This document shows, in pieces, positions 2,473 through 60,214 of a stretch of DNA of 64,000 nt (positions within the stretch are counted from its first letter, which is position 1; every line of letters begins with the position of its first letter). The notes under the pieces were generated by a model. The model was given only the letters and a program-made list of their open reading frames with translations. It was not told the origin of the DNA and ran no database searches. This DNA is from a virus (Duplodnaviria > Caudoviricetes). The stretch is taken from positions 32,001-96,000 of IMG/VR virus record IMGVR_UViG_3300013936_000015; one strand, 5' to 3'. Both the position numbers and the translations under genes were made by a program.

Positions 2473-5400
2473 TTATTCTTCTTCTTGTGGAATTATATAC
2501 CCACCATCGGGGGCTAAATATGTAAATATTGGTTTCATCTCTTTTGCAGCCGTAAATGAATTTACAGCTGCATTATAAAAGGATTTATCACCAAAAGCTA
2601 CACTTCCTACAGAAGAGGCTAAATTAGTTACAGTAGTTATAGCAAATGGGTTCCAATCAGTAACAACAGAACCTATAGAATTAGCAGCATTAAAATCAGA
2701 TGCTGCATATGTCCACGACTTGGTAAGATTATTAGTAAGTGCTGCCAATGCTGCATCAGAAAACTCTCCACTATCTTTTGCTCTCTTAATCATATCTTTA
2801 TTAAGAGAAGTAAAAAGACCACCTAAAAGTGAACCAAGTAACAAGGTGGCGAGAAGATCTATCCAAAGCTGTTTTATATTCTATTTATATCGAAGTCTCA
2901 TATTTGGATCAAGATTACTCATAAATTTATTATATCCAGTAACCCAAGTATATGGATTATTCCATTCTACTTCATCATCATTATATAGAGCTCTAAATGT
3001 CTTACCAATAGTAAGGACAATACCTTCTTCCCACAAACCTTTCCACTATGTAAAAGGAATCTTCATCTATTTATTTTTAAGTTGATCTTCTGTTACAGGA
3101 GGAACACTTCTATCCAAGTTACCATCTTCATCTGTTTGATAAAATAGTGGATTACCATTTGCATCAGTCATTTGTTCCCATTTTCCTTGAATTTTCACAC
3201 CACCTTTCTGGAAATATTGATTCTTCTTGGAAGTCCAATATGTTCTCATCTGCATGAACAGACTTCCTAAGAAAGAAGCATGAATCAAGGATTTGTTCTC
3301 ATGAGTATAATAACCATAAATTGTATCAGTAAGATTCTTCATGGATTCTATATCTTGACTAGTATATGCCATCGGTAGGGGCTGTCCAAATTGAAATTTA
3401 GAGCCATCTGGATTAGTAGCACCTTCCCTAATAAACTGTTCAGCTATGGCAATGTATAAGGCTTCCTGCTTATGATATTCTTCAAGATTAGATTTATCTC
3501 CTTTACTGTATAAACTGAATCTTGCATCTTTTTTAAAATCATAGACTAATTTCTTATCTTTTACAGTAAAAGCATCATAAGTACCTTCGTGTTTCATTTT
3601 AGCTACTATAATTGTCCATCGGTTATAGAAGTCAGGACGGGATACAAATTTCATTGCTATCTCATTAAGATTATTAAATCCGTGCTTATCAGTTCTTAAT
3701 TTCTAAGCATATAGATTCATATCCATATCATTAACACCCATCCACTCATTCATTAACTATAGTTTAGTAGGATCATCAGAGAAATGCATCATCTCTTTTT
3801 CTACTTCAACAAAAGCATCTTTCATATTCTTAAAAGTAAATGCCTATGTGCCGTCTGGTTTTCTTATAATTAAAGATATATCATTCCACAATCCTTGTAA
3901 TTTTTGCCCTATCCATTGTACTGGCCGGAAAGCAAGTGCCATAAAGCTGGCAGCCTATCTTATTCTAGAAGAAGTTTCTCTTACTCCTTTAGCCGTGTCA
4001 GAATTACCTAACATAGGATCATTTTCAAGAGGCTGATTTTTAATTCTAGATCTTAGATAATCTTCGTAGTATTCTACATCATTAACAAATTTAGTATTCT
4101 ATGTAGCACCCATATTAATCAAATATGCCATACCTGCTTTTACAGTAGGCATAATCTAATCAATATGTTTTTTTGTAGAATAAGCAACCATATGTTTGAA
4201 CAATAAATCTTCTAGATTCTATTCAAAATAAGCAGTGCCATATTGTTTTATAATATCCAGACGATGCTATAAGTTTGTACCATCAGAATCTGGTTCTGTA
4301 CTATCAAATATTGTATTTAATTGATACAATTGCTCTGCTGCCTCATAATTATTAGAAGAATCAAATGCACCTTCAAACTTAGCACGCAATTCCTTTAAGG
4401 CATTCTTAGGACTAAGTGCTTTAAATGTTTCTTTCACAGAGTTCCATAAAGAAATCTAATAGTCTTCAAATTGCCCTTCTTCGTTAATTTTCTTTTTTAC
4501 ACCAGCATTTCTTTGATTTGTCCTACTTGCCATACATAAAGGAACACGATAATATCTTATATCGTTATTCTATTTCATTCTTTCTAATTCAGAATCAGTA
4601 TAATTCCATCTGTCCTTATTGATAACATCCAGAGCAAATTCAAGAAACTTTTTCTCTTCACCATGTAAATCATTAATATATTTGAATCTAAAATCACCAT
4701 CTGGAGTTAGCTCAAACATATTATTATACAACTAAGTATCATTCTAAACTGTAGAAGTAAGATAGCCGTAATTTTTTTCTTTCTTTAGTCTTTCAAGATG
4801 CATTCTTGTTTTACTAACAATGTCTCTAGCATCATCTCTTACTCCCTAAAGAGCAATCTTATGAACTTTTGTAATACTATTGAGAATATTAGAAATAAGG
4901 TTTCCGGGGTTATCTGTCTATGTACCATGTATACCGGTATTTAGGAAAGAATTGATACTTAATCCACCTTCTAACCATTTAGCAGATTCTTTTAGTTGCT
5001 GTTTATATTGAAACCCTTGTAACTCTCCAATTTCAATAAGACAATTATAATAAAATCTATAAATTTCTGAATCAAGAGTGCCAGCATTTATCTAAGTTTC
5101 AGTAAGCTGCTTAATATTATAGTCTTTTTCTAATTGTTTTATAATAGTAGTAAGAAGATTAATTTTAGACTACACATTAACATTGTCTTCTGCCATCTCC
5201 TAAATCTAATTGGAACATTTATTATAAACATCCTATTGGTTAAGTTTATATGGAGATTGGTTAGATATTAATTCTGCCAATTGGTTTTTAAGAAGCTGCC
5301 ATCTTGTACCAAATTTTATAACCCCAGATTGAATATTATCATCCCCTTCAAGAGGTGCATATTCTTTCAATCTATTTAGAGAATATAAAATTTGTTCATT

Positions 5401-30703: not shown

Positions 30704-33700
30704 TTAATATTTTGCTTGTCTCATTTTACCAAATTGTTTCCAAAAGGCATCTAACTTAGCTTTCCACTATTTGTAAAGTCTATCATTAGTTTTATTATCC
30801 TCCTTTACCATTGTATCATAAGAAAGATTGTTTCTTTTTACTTTAGTACCTTTCTTTGCTTTAATAGGAGGAGTACCTGCTGGAGGTGTATATGAACCAG
30901 TTGGAGTAAATACTCTCATACCATTATATCGAACCTTTGCTAAATCAGCAATTCTTTTAAGATAATCAACACTCTTTTCATATCCTAATGAAGATAGCTC
31001 ATTCTGCATTTGAGTAAGAATAGCAGTCTACTCTTCTTCTGTTTTAGCTGCATCATATTTCTTCTTATATGCTGCCTGAATAGCAGCTATCTTAGGATTA
31101 TATGAAAGTTCATTATCTAACAATGCAGACTATGCATCGACCCATTGCTGAGTCTACTCTTTATTCTACTGCTTTTCAATAGCAGGCTTTTCTACATAAG
31201 TCTACCACCAAGTTTTCCAATTATTATGGTTCATGGTGTTAGTACTCAACATAACATTAGCCCTCTCTCTTTCATTAGCAATCAGATTCTTATAATTATT
31301 ATTAGCAACCTATACTCTTCTGGCAAGATTAGCATCAGCATGCTATTTAGCAACTTCTGCAGTTTTTTCAATCTTTGCATTATCAGCAGCCTTTCCTTTA
31401 GCAGATAGATCTGCAGCTTGTGACATTCCCTGCATCTAAATAGCATTTGCCCTATCAGCATCAGAAGTATTTGCAGCATTCATAGCTGCAATATTTTGTG
31501 TGGCTGCTCCTGCCTATTGATAAGCATTCTATGTTGCATAATCACCTCTTACTGGCGCAAATGTGTCATAAGTCTTTTCTAATACTGGATTTAAATAACT
31601 TAAATATAAATCCCTTTGTTTATTATTAAATTTATTATCAGACATTGCCTGCCTTAATCCAAGTAAAGCAGGTGTAAGCTCTTTTAATTTATCAATAACT
31701 GGACGTAAAGTATCTTTAGGCCCGTTTTCTGGAGTAATACCTGCAACATTCTGTCCAGTGGTTCTTCTTAGATAATAATATCCATCATTACCAAGATACT
31801 GTTCCATTCCAATAGATTTTAATCTATTGTTCCAATCAGTAAGCTATTCGGTAGTAAAATCTCCCTGTCTTCCAAGAAGTCTTCTATCATCGGTCTAACC
31901 ACTATATGAACCGTCAGGTCTCCAATTAGAAACTGAAGAATCACCTCCATTTCTTTTTTCATGACCAATATATCTATATCTTCCTGCTTCCCAAGCAGGT
32001 TGAATGGCACGTGCATTATATCCATGTTTTTCATGATTTCTACTTAAAGAATCAGCATCATAATCTTTCTGATAAGATCTTACATCGTCTGCAGAACCAT
32101 TATATGCCTACTCAATAAAATTACCATTTGCGCCTCCTGCCGCCTAATAAAGACCATGATGCCTTGTCTACATTTTATTAAGGAAGTCCATATACTGATT
32201 ATCATTACCATATGTTTGTAACTGACTAAGTATATAATCCTATGTTGGAGAGAATATATTTCCATACCAAGTAGTATTATTTTGTGTATTATTAATACCA
32301 CCATTACCGGGAGTATTTCCACCGGCAGCAAATTTTAATACTCCGCCATATTCATATTTGATAGCAGCAAGAGCGTCTTTTGCATTCTAAAGAGCATTAG
32401 GATTAGTACTGTTTGCACTTTTAGCTTCCAAAGTAATAATACGTGAAATTACATCAAAGAGTTCTTTTCTAATATCTTTATCTTGTCTAGTAGCTTTTCT
32501 TCCTGCTCTGTCCTGCCCCTTTCCTGTCATTATCTATTTAAAAGTGTCAATGACATCTTTATCTGAAGTAGATAATTTATCAACCGTTGCTTTATGATTG
32601 TCTAAAAACTTATTAAGTTGGTCTGGTTTAATAGCTTTACCCTCTGTCTATGTATGAGCAAAGATATTCTATATTTCAGATTTAATATTATCAACAGAAC
32701 TAAAATCAGTTTTATTAGTAACTGGAGCAGTCCCACCAGTAGGAGTAGGTCCACTATTTGTGGTATTTCCACCAGTAGATGTATTTCCACCAGTAGATGT
32801 ATTTCCACCGGCAGAAGAATGAGTTGTATTTCCACCAGTAGATGTTGTAGAAGTATTAGAATTTACAGGTTTGCCTTGAACAGTAGGTGTTGCAACTCCC
32901 CATCTTGGCATAGAAAGATGAGGAAATTTTATTGAAGATTTTCCACCTGCATAGACATCATAATTAGTATTAAAGAATTTAGAAAGAATAGGATGTTTCT
33001 ATATCCTAGTCTGATTCTTATTGTACCTATCCGTATAATCAGTACTGCCATTAATACGTGCCTCCCCAGTTTCTTCCAAATTCTTTTGTTTAAATCTGGA
33101 AAGAGGATTAAATGAACGTGTTTCTGGTCTAAAATTATCAGTTACTGAATATGAGTCGGCATTCTTTACCTTATTTTCATTTAATGCTTCCTAAAGTTTT
33201 GTATTTGCGTCTTTCTAAGTTTTTGCTTTATTAATAGCTTTTATCTATTTAGGAGTAAGATTTACTTCTGCTTTCTAGTCACCTTGCTTAACATTAACAC
33301 TTCTAGCTGCCTTTGGTTGACTATTTTGATATTCTTGTCTTTCTGCAGAATAATATCGATTCTTACCTGCCTAAACACCCATCTGTCCTATTCCAAATAC
33401 GGCTCGGGCGGCACTCATAAAGTTCTTATAGTCGGTTGTTGTCAGATCATCTCCATTTACCATCTTAGTAAGAGAATCTCTAACATTCTTATCAAATGCA
33501 AGTCCTGTGGCATTTGCTCCTGCAATAATCCTAGGTGCCCATTTCATTAATTTAGCACCAAGAGAACCTGCCTTACCTCCGGGAAGTAATCCTAAAGCAC
33601 CATATCCTAGATTTACTAAAGCATTCTTTGCAACATCTCCAGCAGTCATACTATCGTCCATTATATCTGCTGTGAGATCAGTTCCCATAGATGTAAGTCC

Positions 33701-55693: not shown

Positions 55694-56488
55694 TCAAATT
55701 TTTTTCACATAATTACCAATCATATTGGCAAGTTTTGTATAAAGTGGTTGACCAGAATCTCGGATACATAAATACAAAATTCCATCTTCCTTATAATATT
55801 TATCCTTATAAATTACAAGATTACCATCTGAAGGATAATCTATCGGATCATCTTTTGTACCCGACTGTTGCTCTACAATCTAAACATATAAAGAAGCAGT
55901 CTAAATAGAAGGAGGATATACCTCCTAAACAAGATGATCTTGAACAACCTTATACAATTTGTCGTCATATTGAATCTTTGTATCTTTCTTTATATTCTGA
56001 CCAATAAAAGATTCCCAAGTAGGATATAAAGACTTAACTTCAAGTGCTTGGCTATCTGTTAAAGACATAGTATTAATTGTCATAGACACAACCTTAAATA
56101 CATCTTTCTACCTAGGAGTCTATTGCACAATAGGCAAAGATTCCTCAATATTAAAATCCTTCTTTACATTGGATTTAATCTCTTTTAACAAATTAAGATA
56201 GGACTCATAATCTTCTGTCATATCTCCTCCCATCTAATAAAAATTATATGAGTTAATAAAGTCAAATTCTTCATCCTAACTCACATACTTTCTTAATACT
56301 CCTAAAACACATTTCTTATATGTAGGCTCTCCCTCTATTTTAACTGCAATAAAAGAATAACAAGAACCCGGAGTATCCTTCATTTCTTCCTATTTAATAT
56401 CATAATTATAAAACCAATATCCATTTTCTAAATCTATAAGAGTATTGGGTTTGATATTAGACTAATCTCTATTAGGATTTTCTACCAT
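55694..56488 (-). CDS. Protein with a C-terminal CBM5/12 (chitin-binding)-like module (~264 aa, TAG=Gln)
   Basis: LTDSQALEVKSLYPTWESFIG...IQYDDKLYKVVQDH...GTKDDPIDYP...KYYKEDGILYLCIRDS. Start overlaps the RT stop; ends TGA 55694. Confidence 0.6.
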
Positions 56489-57662
56489 AAATAATACAAT
56501 TTAAAGGATATTTACAAATTAATAGCTTATTAAAATTCTATACATTTCTACTCTTAATAGTATAGGAATTTTTCTTATATATATAATGGACTTCGTAATA
56601 TTTTGTTCGGGGAACAACTTCAATGATTCTAATATTACCTTTCTTAAAGTAGGCTGTTCCTCCATTCCAATTAGAAAAATGCAAACCAGTTAATTTCTCT
56701 ATCTTAAATAATAAATTCTTGGAATCACAATATTTCAACCACCCAAAATAAGAAGATAATTTTGAAGAAAGATCATCAAATGACAATTTATGCTGCTTAT
56801 ATTTATTTATAATTTTGAAGATTTTTTGTTTAATAGATTTCCTGATTTTTGTGTAATTATGATAAAACACATAACCTACAAAATCTATTCCCCTAGATTC
56901 TACAGGAAAAATTTGATAATTCCCCTTCACTTCCAGATTTAAAATATATTTCAAATAAATCTTGATTAAAATTAAATACTTTCTTAACTCTTCCTTATTA
57001 TCAGATAAAATAATAATATCATCGGCATATCTAAAATAATACCTAATTTTCACTTCCTCTTTTAACCAATGATCAAAATAACTTAAATATAAATTAGCAA
57101 AAAATTGAGAAAGATAATTGCCTATGGGAATACCATCAGTAGAATCAATTATCTCATCCAATAAATTTAATAACAGTTTGTCTTTTATCTTCTTCCTAAT
57201 TATTTGTTTAAGTATATCATGGTTAATAGAAGGATAGAACTTTCTTATGTCTAATTTTAGACAATAAGTAGTCCCGATTTTATCTTTTAATGCCTTCTTT
57301 ACATCCTATACACATTTATGAATACCCCTACCCTTTATACAAGAATATGTATTTTTTATAAAAATTTTATTCCATATATGTTCTAAGGTTAAAACAATAT
57401 CCCAATGTAAAATTCTATCTGGATAATAAGGTAATCTATAAATCTCCCGCTCTTTAGGCTCATAAATCTTATAAACATCATACTTAGATGTTTTATATGT
57501 TCCATTTATTAGTGACTTCTATAATTTCAGATAGTTCTCCTCTTTATGCCTGTCATGTTTAATAATTCCTATATTATTCTTTCCACGCCGAGCATTCGTA
57601 TCTGCAAGCTCTATCCTCTTTAAATCACAAATAAAAGGATATAAATTTCCAATACGTTTCAT
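56472..57662 (-). CDS. DGR reverse transcriptase (~396 aa, TAG=Gln)
   Basis: MKRIGNLY...YEPKEREI...YPDRI...YSCIKGRG...LKLDIRKFYPSI...GIPIGNYLSQ...YFRYADD. In-frame TAGs at 57519-21, 57306-08 and 56538-40. Confidence 0.93.
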
Positions 57663-57777
57663 TATGTTATTTTGGAATTTTCAATAAAAATACTTACTAA
57701 TACCATTTTTTTATAAAAACTACGATATCTTTTGCCAAGAGGCAAGGTTATTATATTAAAGATATTGTTTAAACATA

Positions 57778-57883
57778 ATAAGAGCGAAACCCGATATTCG
57801 ACTAGGAGACTAGAAGAGAATTGTTAGAGTTGAAATGAAACAACCTAGCATTAGACCAATTGTTAACGTTACTGCCTACTAGT
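57778..57883 (-). repeat. DGR template repeat (TR)
   Basis: Ungapped 106-bp match to 57935-58040. All 20 mismatches fall at TR adenines (minus strand). Rich in AAC/AAT codons. Confidence 0.95.
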
Positions 57884-57922
57884 ATATTAAGTTTCAATAT
57901 AATAACCTGTATTTAATATAAC

Positions 57923-60214
57923 TTATTTAAATATAGAAGAGCGAAACCCGAGAAGCGACCAGGAGACCAGAAGAGAATGGTCAGAGCTGAAATGAAACAA
58001 CCCAGCATCAGACCAAGAGTCAACGCCACCGCCCACCAGGCAGCTTCTAAGGTCCTCATCTGCTGTACCTACATAGTGATAATCACACAAACCTGTAGTA
58101 GTAGAGCCTTTAATGTCTATTGGGAAAATATTGCCCTCTGATCCTAAATCCATTTGAGTTGAATAGCCTGCCTAATGCAGTTCTTTTCCCACCTAATCCA
58201 TTGTTTTCATTGAGGTTCTATCATGCTCACTTCCGTCCGATTTACAGTACTTGTCAGGATCTCTCGTAGCATATACTGTATTATAAGAGCCTCCAGATTC
58301 ATTTGAAGCGTCAATAACAATTCCATCAAGATTAAGACTAACATCTCCAAATAAATTTTCATACCCTCTCCATTTAAATGGATATTCAGTATCTGCCGGA
58401 TAACTTAATTCTGTTGTTGTAGAACTGTCACAAAATACCGTGATATTACAACTTGTCTTGTCTGGATCAACTATATTATAACCTCCAGCATCTTTTATAT
58501 ATGTAAATCCCTCAATCTATATTCTAAACCCATTAAGAGTTATTGTTTGAGGAGTTTCTTGATTATCTTTTGTGAAAGTAATCTTATTAGTACTTGACTC
58601 CTATATTATCACTTTCTAATCATCTACCAGACCAGTAACATGAAAAGTAGCTTCTCCACTTCCATAAATAGCAGAATAACCCCAATAAGCATTTGGTCCA
58701 TATACATTCGTACAAGTAACTGACTGCCCATCAGAAGAAACTTTCCAACTACTAGAATAATCTAGTAATATCTTACTAGTAACAGAGGGCTGGTGATAAT
58801 ATCGTCCAATAGCATCTCTATTACCAAAATATATTTTCTATGTACTAACAGTAAATGCTGGAAGTTCTAATTTTTTAATATTAGTAGTACTGCCTAAATC
58901 ATCTAAATATCCATTAGGACATACAGAATAATAATTATTATATGATAATGGGTTATTTACAGTAGTAACTCCCATTCCCATTCCTCCTTGATGCAGTCCA
59001 CCTGCTGTAAGAGTAGATTTAAAACCAGCTTGAGAATTAAAAGTGGCATATTCAATCACCCATAACCAAACAATATCTTTATAGTTATAATAAGACATTA
59101 TTTCCATACCAGCATTTCTGCAATATGTTCTCATTATATTTCTATTGATAGCCGTTCTACATTTACCTAAGTCTGAACGGTATGGATCTGTTTTTAGATA
59201 TTTGTCATAATCAGTTCTATTGCCACCTCCTCTACAATAGGTACTTGTATTATTAATACTGACTGCTGAATTTACTGGTAAGGTACTTAAATACCCCATA
59301 TTTTTAGGTACAGTGTTTAATACTGTAATTCTGTATGCACTATCATATCTTGATGGTACTAAAGTCCATTCATTACCGAGATTCTCCTAAGCAATCTTTA
59401 CTTGATTATATGTATTATCTCCATCTTCCACATTAGTTTCACTTAGAATATAATACTGTGGTATATCTAACATTACTTGTCCATCATATCCTGATAAATC
59501 GGATCCTAAATAACACGTGAATGGAGTGTTAAAGACACCAGAAGTTTCCAGACTGGCTTCTACATTCATTCTAATAAATTTATCTGAAGTAGTAGCTGAA
59601 TCTAGAATAACTACCTCTGTAATCTTAAATGGTTGTTTAGTATCAAAATTATCTTTAATTTGAATCCAGTGATCAACTAATCGATTTTCAGCTTGTTCTA
59701 AATTAGAGATGTCTGAAAAGTTCTTTATATTGACGCTAACCTGTCCAGAAGCTGTTCCATTACTATATGTAATCTCTCCAGTCCCTTTAATCTCTGTGGC
59801 ATTTTTTCTGAATCTCCAATCTTTAGGATCTAAGTCATACATTTTTGTCTTAGAAGATTTAGTAGACTGGACAATACAAGCCTTTATCTAAGATTGGATA
59901 GGTAATTCTCTATGATAGTCAAAATTACCGATCCTTTCAAGAGTAGGATCTTTATATGTAGTAGACCATCTTACTCCATACCATTTATATACTACTGGTG
60001 GAGAATATGTTTTCCATATTGGCTTAGTTCCATCTGATTGTAAAAACAACCCATTACCACCTTCATAACCAGAAGGGACAAATAAAAAGTCTTTCCCCTG
60101 TGTTTTTATTTCTTCATATCCATTTTCTGAAACAAAAGCAATATCGGTGTCTTTAACATCTGTTTTAGTATTTAATCCAGATTTTGTTTTTGCATTTATA
60201 AGTCTTATAGCCAT
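57923..60214 (-). CDS. DGR target, putative receptor-binding/tail-fibre protein with a CLec-type C-terminus (~763 aa, TAG=Gln)
   Basis: Fragments 60214, 59842, 59299 and 58153 are in frame. WYGVRW, DGQVMLDIP, IEYATFNSQ, WRGYENLFGDV and a terminal GG...G...GFR motif. Confidence 0.85.
57935..58040 (-). repeat. DGR variable repeat (VR) at the 3' end of the target gene
   Basis: Encodes LVGGGVDSWSDAGLFHFSSDHSLLVSWSLLGFRS and differs from TR only at A positions. Confidence 0.95.

Follow-up and report, generated by a model that had tools for sequence, protein, structure and literature searches.

The in-frame TAG codon in the template repeat (TR) of the DGR described here is very probably the product of a silent change from TGG to TAG, which together with a rule by which template adenines before G are written as G yields a skewed Trp/Gln site, and this works in standard-code phages too. 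Held jointly with this explanation, and at the same level of confidence, is the assignment of the locus as an active, Avd-less DGR in a TAG-recoded gut phage, with a reverse transcriptase (RT) like those of crAss-like phages. The TR, being non-coding, would have acquired its TAG by silent G-to-A drift of the Trp codon TGG. With RTs of this clade, a template A before G nearly always enters the variable repeat (VR) as G, and the TR TAG would become TGG (Trp) in ∼90% or more of the homing products. Products that keep the A would carry TAG, which would end the target 12 residues early under the standard code, while in the recoded phage the VR TAG would be read through, most likely as Gln via tRNA(CUA), like the 8 other TAG codons of the gene. 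The site would then be a strongly skewed Trp/Gln two-state position and not a four-way diversification codon. Since the adenine of TAG always precedes a G, a TR TAG would in effect encode Trp, apart from a small amber leak.

The window, i.e., the whole stretch of 64,000 nucleotides that was analyzed (positions 32,001 to 96,000 of the IMG/VR record IMGVR_UViG_3300013936_000015), contains the following elements of the locus:

56472..57662, minus strand: DGR reverse transcriptase, 396 aa, with 3 in-frame TAG codons (PF00078, 2e-20; phrog_1423, 1e-112)
57745..57760, unstranded: 3' arm of an inverted repeat bracketing the TR, 16 nt, 94% complementary to 57893-57908
57780..57883, minus strand: template repeat, non-coding, 104 nt (repeat search and TR/VR alignment)
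57802..57804, minus strand: in-frame TAG of the TR (adenine at 57803, in a 5'-AG-3' context)
57893..57908, unstranded: 5' arm of the inverted repeat bracketing the TR, pairing with 57745-57760
57923..60214, minus strand: DGR target, a 763-aa tail protein with 8 in-frame TAG codons (phrog_5302, tail protein, 1e-43)
57937..58040, minus strand: variable repeat, the last ∼35 codons of the target (repeat search and alignment)
57959..57961, minus strand: VR codon facing the TR TAG, TGG in the window (alignment)

On the minus strand the order is target gene with C-terminal VR, TR and RT. The RT translation contains PIGNYLSQ (IGNYLSQ) and YADD, which correspond to the motifs [I/V]GxxxSQ and YxDD of the DGR clade, and 7990 homologs were found at E ≤ 1e-30. 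The target ORF (57923-60214, minus strand) ends with ...SWSLLGFRSSIFK and a stop codon, which sets the reading frame for both repeats, and the VR lies at the 3' end of this ORF. In the VR frame the TR would be translated as LVGSNVNNWSNARLFHFNSNNSLLVS[TAG]SNIGFRSYYV and a stop, and the VR is translated as LVGGGVDSWSDAGLFHFSSDHSLLVSWSLLGFRSSIFK and a stop. TR and VR have TCGGGTTTCGCTCTT in common and diverge after it, which makes this a candidate IMH region at the 3' end of the VR. Within the homology all TR/VR mismatches are located at TR adenines, and among 43 VR alleles differences at other bases were seen rarely, as isolated cases.

The TR occupies the interval from the target stop (57923) to the RT start (57662), and no ORF was found there that could encode Avd or any other protein. 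An ORF of 264 aa (55694-56488 of the window, minus strand) has a 17-nt overlap with the RT stop and follows the RT in every contig; it belongs to phrog_30034, a family of unknown function, and may be an accessory gene of an Avd-less DGR. The 16-nt inverted repeat around the TR could, in RNA, clamp the template into a stem.

That the phage is TAG-recoded, as the sequence-only reading had it, was confirmed. When TAG was read through, the fraction of the window covered by ORFs of at least 100 aa rose from 45% under the standard code to 97%, and the longest ORF from 391 to 3193 aa. For the whole 136.5-kb record the ORF coverage increased from 53 to 91%. A suppressor tRNA with the anticodon CTA (CUA) was identified by ARAGORN outside the window, at positions 121209-121281 of the record (minus strand), and tRNAs for Thr, Arg, and Ile are located at positions 132985-133738. 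In the RTs of recoded relatives, TAG codons were aligned to columns that are Gln in 15/15 standard-code homologs. The window RT's own 3 TAG codons stand on variable columns, in which Gln is the second or third commonest residue. A single RT TAG present in L081, L082, L096, L099, L102, L112, and L143 (locus position 4472) falls on a column that is Arg in 15/15 standard-code homologs; the other RT TAGs of the recoded relatives are on invariant Gln columns. For crAss-like phages, code 15 is supported by proteomics (PMC9523058). The reading of TAG as Gln in this phage is well supported, indirectly, by its relatives and by the literature. In the record, CTAG occurs 259 times against a Markov expectation of 441 and GATC 240 times against 467, an under-representation of ∼2-fold in both cases; CTAG is scarce although TAG is a frequent sense codon.

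The nearest GenBank relatives of the RT are from crAss-like phages, with 52-59% identity. PHROGs and tblastn searches with the adjoining structural genes did not place the phage, and searches of viral and metagenome contigs for near relatives, using the target protein and the TR/VR pattern, returned nothing. As to the C-type-lectin fold expected for the VR-bearing domain of a DGR target, structure models of the target reached a pLDDT of 32 from the single sequence and of 54 from a 36-sequence alignment, with values below 50 in the VR region, and a Foldseek search of the PDB with this low-pLDDT model gave no match. A weak profile match of the VR region to the VR of Bordetella phage Mtd and to 5vf4 was obtained (E 0.004).

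On the minus strand, the TR reads GTC TCC TAG TCG AAT ATC GGG where the VR reads GTC TCC TGG TCG CTT CTC GGG, as had been described from the letters, and the positions given for the two codons, 57802-57804 and 57959-57961, proved exact. The target uses TAG in 8/764 codons, which corresponds to a ∼29% chance of at least one TAG per 33 codons, and the presence of a TAG in the TR is no more than the chance expectation. The recoded relative L095, with an RT that is 63% identical, has the TR stretch CTAGTAGGCAGTAAC in common with the window, and its TR contains an in-frame TAG as well, located three codons ahead of GFR and facing TGG. Because L095 has both the same stretch and the TAG, the TAG state is probably inherited, as judged from this comparison of the two templates. 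The other two contigs of the L095 lineage have the same VR and are thus without population variation. At the place of the TAG the other recoded relatives have AAY, and L077 has a TGG one codon away in its TR.

Variation in natural populations was taken from 48 public assembly contigs with an RT in a 99%-identity cluster, with one consensus allele per sample; the TR was scored in 36 of these contigs. The VR was present in 43 distinct alleles, whose differences are nearly confined to TR-adenine positions, and since the TR is constant while the VR has 43 alleles, the DGR is active. The codon facing the TR TAG was TGG in 39 alleles (Trp, 91%), TAG in 3 (7%) and GGG in 1. TCG and TTG were found in none of the 43 alleles, as counted in assembly consensus, below the level of which they could exist. 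Of the four codons that the sequence-only reading had proposed to look for at 57959-57961 (TAG, TCG, TTG, and TGG), the assemblies therefore contain TGG and TAG, while TCG and TTG are absent.

The predicted TAG-bearing VR alleles thus do occur, in 3 of the 43 distinct alleles. They are the consensus in three independent assemblies (L036, L046, and L057), on contigs of 68-150 kb with a coverage of 63-319x, and in each case TAG is the dominant allele of its sample. Each of them contains VR-specific bases both 9 nt before the TAG (CTGG instead of CTAG) and 4-7 nt after it; because VR-specific bases flank it on both sides within 9 nt, the TAG alleles are not TR/VR chimeras. It is concluded that an amber codon written into the target by the DGR is tolerated by the recoded phage. 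Among the VR alleles at large, a CTG (Leu) versus CAG (Gln) polymorphism was observed at position 58038 of the window (VR index 2), with a nearly even split of 18 A and 15 T in 33 distinct alleles. It is located in the codon just 5' of the adenine-mutated part, at a TR thymine, and adenine mutagenesis does not explain it.

The fate of template adenines depended on the following base. At the six TR adenines before G, the alleles of this phage have A 5, C 0, G 250, and T 3 times (250/258 G), and at the synonymous third positions of CTA, GTA, and CTA before G, a G was found in 126/129 cases. The adenines in AAY, CAT, and ATC codons, in contrast, were replaced by all four bases (A 278, C 143, G 181, T 172). 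Across 111 RT-related viral loci with 117 TR/VR pairs, an A before G was written as G in 94% and stayed A in 5% (n = 458 sites). The unrelated, standard-code L029 lineage, with 11 alleles, has G 95, A 3, and T 1 at AG adenines, including the synonymous positions of GGA, CGA, TCA, and TTA. Protein-level selection was rejected as the cause of G at AG sites, because the synonymous sites follow the rule as well. Vsr-type repair (CTAG/CCWGG) was rejected as the sole cause: the focal CCTGG site fits, but GTAG, CAG, and other NAG sites behave alike.

By analogy with the Bordetella RT (bRT), the G would result from placing C opposite A in reverse transcription; alternatively, G:T mismatch repair might favor the resident G. 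For bRT, a template G at +1 strongly favors C opposite adenine, i.e., an A-to-G change (bioRxiv 10.1101/2025.03.24.644984), and context dependence of DGR mutagenesis is also described in PMC12875486. In the same experiments the mutation rate of bRT at AG adenines was lower and A was often kept, and natural TRs were found to be poor in codons able to mutate to stops (bioRxiv 10.1101/2025.03.24.644984). The natural AG bias looks stronger than in the bRT experiments, so a step after synthesis (e.g., G:T repair) is possible: either the RT here may be far more biased than bRT, or G:T repair or selection on the DNA may contribute.

A further proposal combines such a step with selection on the codon: the near-complete conversion of AG to G, seen at synonymous sites and in three lineages, would reflect a step beyond plain misincorporation, and in recoded phages the leak of the TR TAG would serve as a Trp/Gln switch, open to selection, in the receptor-binding face. 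This combination is considered rather unlikely. Candidate steps may be an RT-intrinsic templated insertion of C, short-patch repair of G:T mismatches in the homing heteroduplex or RNA editing of the template. If such a step exists, G-to-A drift in TRs would be invisible, and a Trp/Gln switch, if true, would be impossible under the standard code.

A little less probable is a selected toggle proper, in which the TR TAG is kept as a useful switch of a binding residue between Trp and Gln against different host receptors, in recoded phages only. At the focal site the A was retained in 3/43 alleles compared to 2/215 at the other AG sites of the TR (Fisher p = 0.03; p = 0.05 against synonymous AG sites only), a possible sign that the TAG allele is selected on occasion; both p-values are borderline, and the comparisons were picked once the data were known. 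The dominance of the three TAG alleles in their well-covered samples and the TAG at the same TR position in L095 are in line with a toggle as well, but the conservation may be shared ancestry of a neutral state, and the structure model is of low confidence in the VR. The 7% retention was moreover counted as in the range of AG sites in other lineages (3-5%), and the toggle is therefore only a minor possibility.

The sequence-only reading had gone further. It took the TAG as a true four-way codon sampling Gln, Trp, Ser, and Leu, which would be usable only by recoding, widen the chemical repertoire and tie the cassette to recoded genomes. In its favor are the TAG alleles in the VR of three natural populations and the genetic code itself, by which Gln and Trp are unreachable from AAY. 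An in-frame TAG is furthermore present in 2/5 recoded TR clusters (the window counted) compared to 1/23 standard-code clusters, with samples too small for a formal comparison of rates (L102 was excluded from this survey). However, this frequency in recoded clusters agrees with plain codon usage of the target (29% per 33 codons), and a Ser or Leu codon was found in none of the 43 alleles, which leaves a site with Trp at 91% and TAG at 7% instead of a four-way sampling.

A further argument against it comes from the L027/L029 lineage, in which the TR has AAC TAG GAC and the L029 VR has GTC TGG GGC, with the TAG on the conserved Trp of GG.W. The L029-lineage genome IMGVR_UViG_3300045988_183682 is 173.9 kb long with direct terminal repeats and uses the standard code throughout (ORF coverage of 0.90 with the standard code and 0.92 with TAG read through), and no suppressor tRNA was found in the whole 173.9 kb. 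In many human-gut samples the DGR of this lineage is active; 11 different VR alleles were obtained, and the TR TAG was written as TGG in 11/11 of them. A standard-code phage of 174 kb thus keeps an in-frame TAG in its TR, which contradicts the view that such a codon needs recoding to be of use, and it obtains Trp from it in every allele, so Trp is not a gain from recoding. Neither is Gln, which ordinary DGRs reach from the template codons CAA and CAG; this point rests on the genetic code, because CAR (Gln) codons are common in the surveyed TRs but stand opposite Arg or Leu in the VRs.

The cassette is not locked to recoded genomes either. As the AG adenine is kept in only ∼1-7% of VRs, the cost of a stop under the standard code (code 11) would be small, and in-frame stops are present in 4/23 standard-code TR clusters (1 TAG, 2 TGA, 1 TAA). 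The in-frame TGA stands opposite Trp in L106 and opposite Cys in L135/L142/L149/L151/L152, and the in-frame TAA of the L002/L003/L127 group stands opposite Phe in L003 and L127. At these TGA and TAA sites every viable homing product must be mutated. The four-way reading is thus largely refuted by the allele counts in this phage and in the L029 lineage, and it is given little chance. What recoding does is to make homing products that keep the A viable rather than truncated, as the three natural populations show.

Weakest of all, and hardly credible, is an artifact, i.e., a sequencing or assembly error such as a TR/VR collapse as the source of the TR TAG or of the TAG-bearing VR alleles: 5/36 contigs have VR-like mosaics at the TR, so that repeats do confuse assemblers, but the TR is letter-for-letter identical in 31/36 independent assemblies of the same phage, which argues against an error in the TR, and a chimera would need two switches within ∼16 nt in each TAG allele. 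The remaining 5/36 contigs (among L033-L067) have VR-like substitutions in the TR copy, as mosaics or as a single A-to-G change, and look like TR/VR assembly mosaics; the altered copies are either cross-talk of the repeats in assembly or real TR corruption.

The locus can be compared with related systems that are already known. According to the retrieved passages of PMC12386605 and bioRxiv 10.1101/2023.08.07.552389, the DGRs of Zeta crAss-like and other TAG-recoded gut phages resemble the locus in having an RT and a tail-fiber target with in-frame TAG codons, a suppressor tRNA(CUA), the order target-VR, TR, RT, and a VR at the C-terminus of the tail protein that ends in ...GFR. Amber-recoded RTs and tail fibers in DGRs are described there for Zeta crAss-like phages (PMC12386605) and for infant-gut phages (bioRxiv 10.1101/2023.08.07.552389). 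Avd is absent here as in most Zeta crAss-like DGRs (PMC12386605), and because most of these lack it, Avd is not defining for all DGRs. The likeness of the window phage to crAss-like phages lies in its RT only. Neither a template-internal TAG nor the writing of an amber codon into the VR is mentioned in the retrieved passages of PMC12386605 and bioRxiv 10.1101/2023.08.07.552389, and the literature search found no paper on either.

With the DGR of Bordetella phage BPP-1 (bRT-Avd, Mtd) the locus shares adenine-specific mutagenesis, AAY codons as the main variable sites and a preference for A-to-G when a G is located 3' of the template adenine (bioRxiv 10.1101/2025.03.24.644984; PMC12875486). Unlike BPP-1, the window phage has no Avd gene and uses code 15, and in its natural VRs AG adenines are written as G in ∼95%, whereas bRT mutates AG adenines less often overall. 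The L027/L029 lineage has in common with the window phage a TR TAG opposite a VR Trp codon, the AG-to-GG rule and an active DGR. It differs in its standard code, in the lack of a suppressor tRNA and in an Avd-sized ORF between target and TR; in addition, its TAG stands on the GG.W Trp and not near GFR, and no TAG allele is present among its 11 VR alleles.

The AG rule, for which experimental proof has so far been given for one RT (bRT), is observed here at synonymous sites in wild phages. It bears on the prediction of VR repertoires, on DGR-finding software that expects random A-to-N changes and on the design of templates for DGR mutagenesis tools. Both DGRs and the recoding of stop codons are frequent in gut phages, and the two are often found side by side. 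Natural populations of this phage provide direct evidence that a DGR can place an amber codon in its target and that such a codon is tolerated under recoding. An expansion of the repertoire by recoding is mostly unneeded as an explanation, as the conversion of AG to GG makes a template TAG behave like a Trp codon under any code. The significance of the template TAG is modest: it is a small twist on a known system and no new capability.
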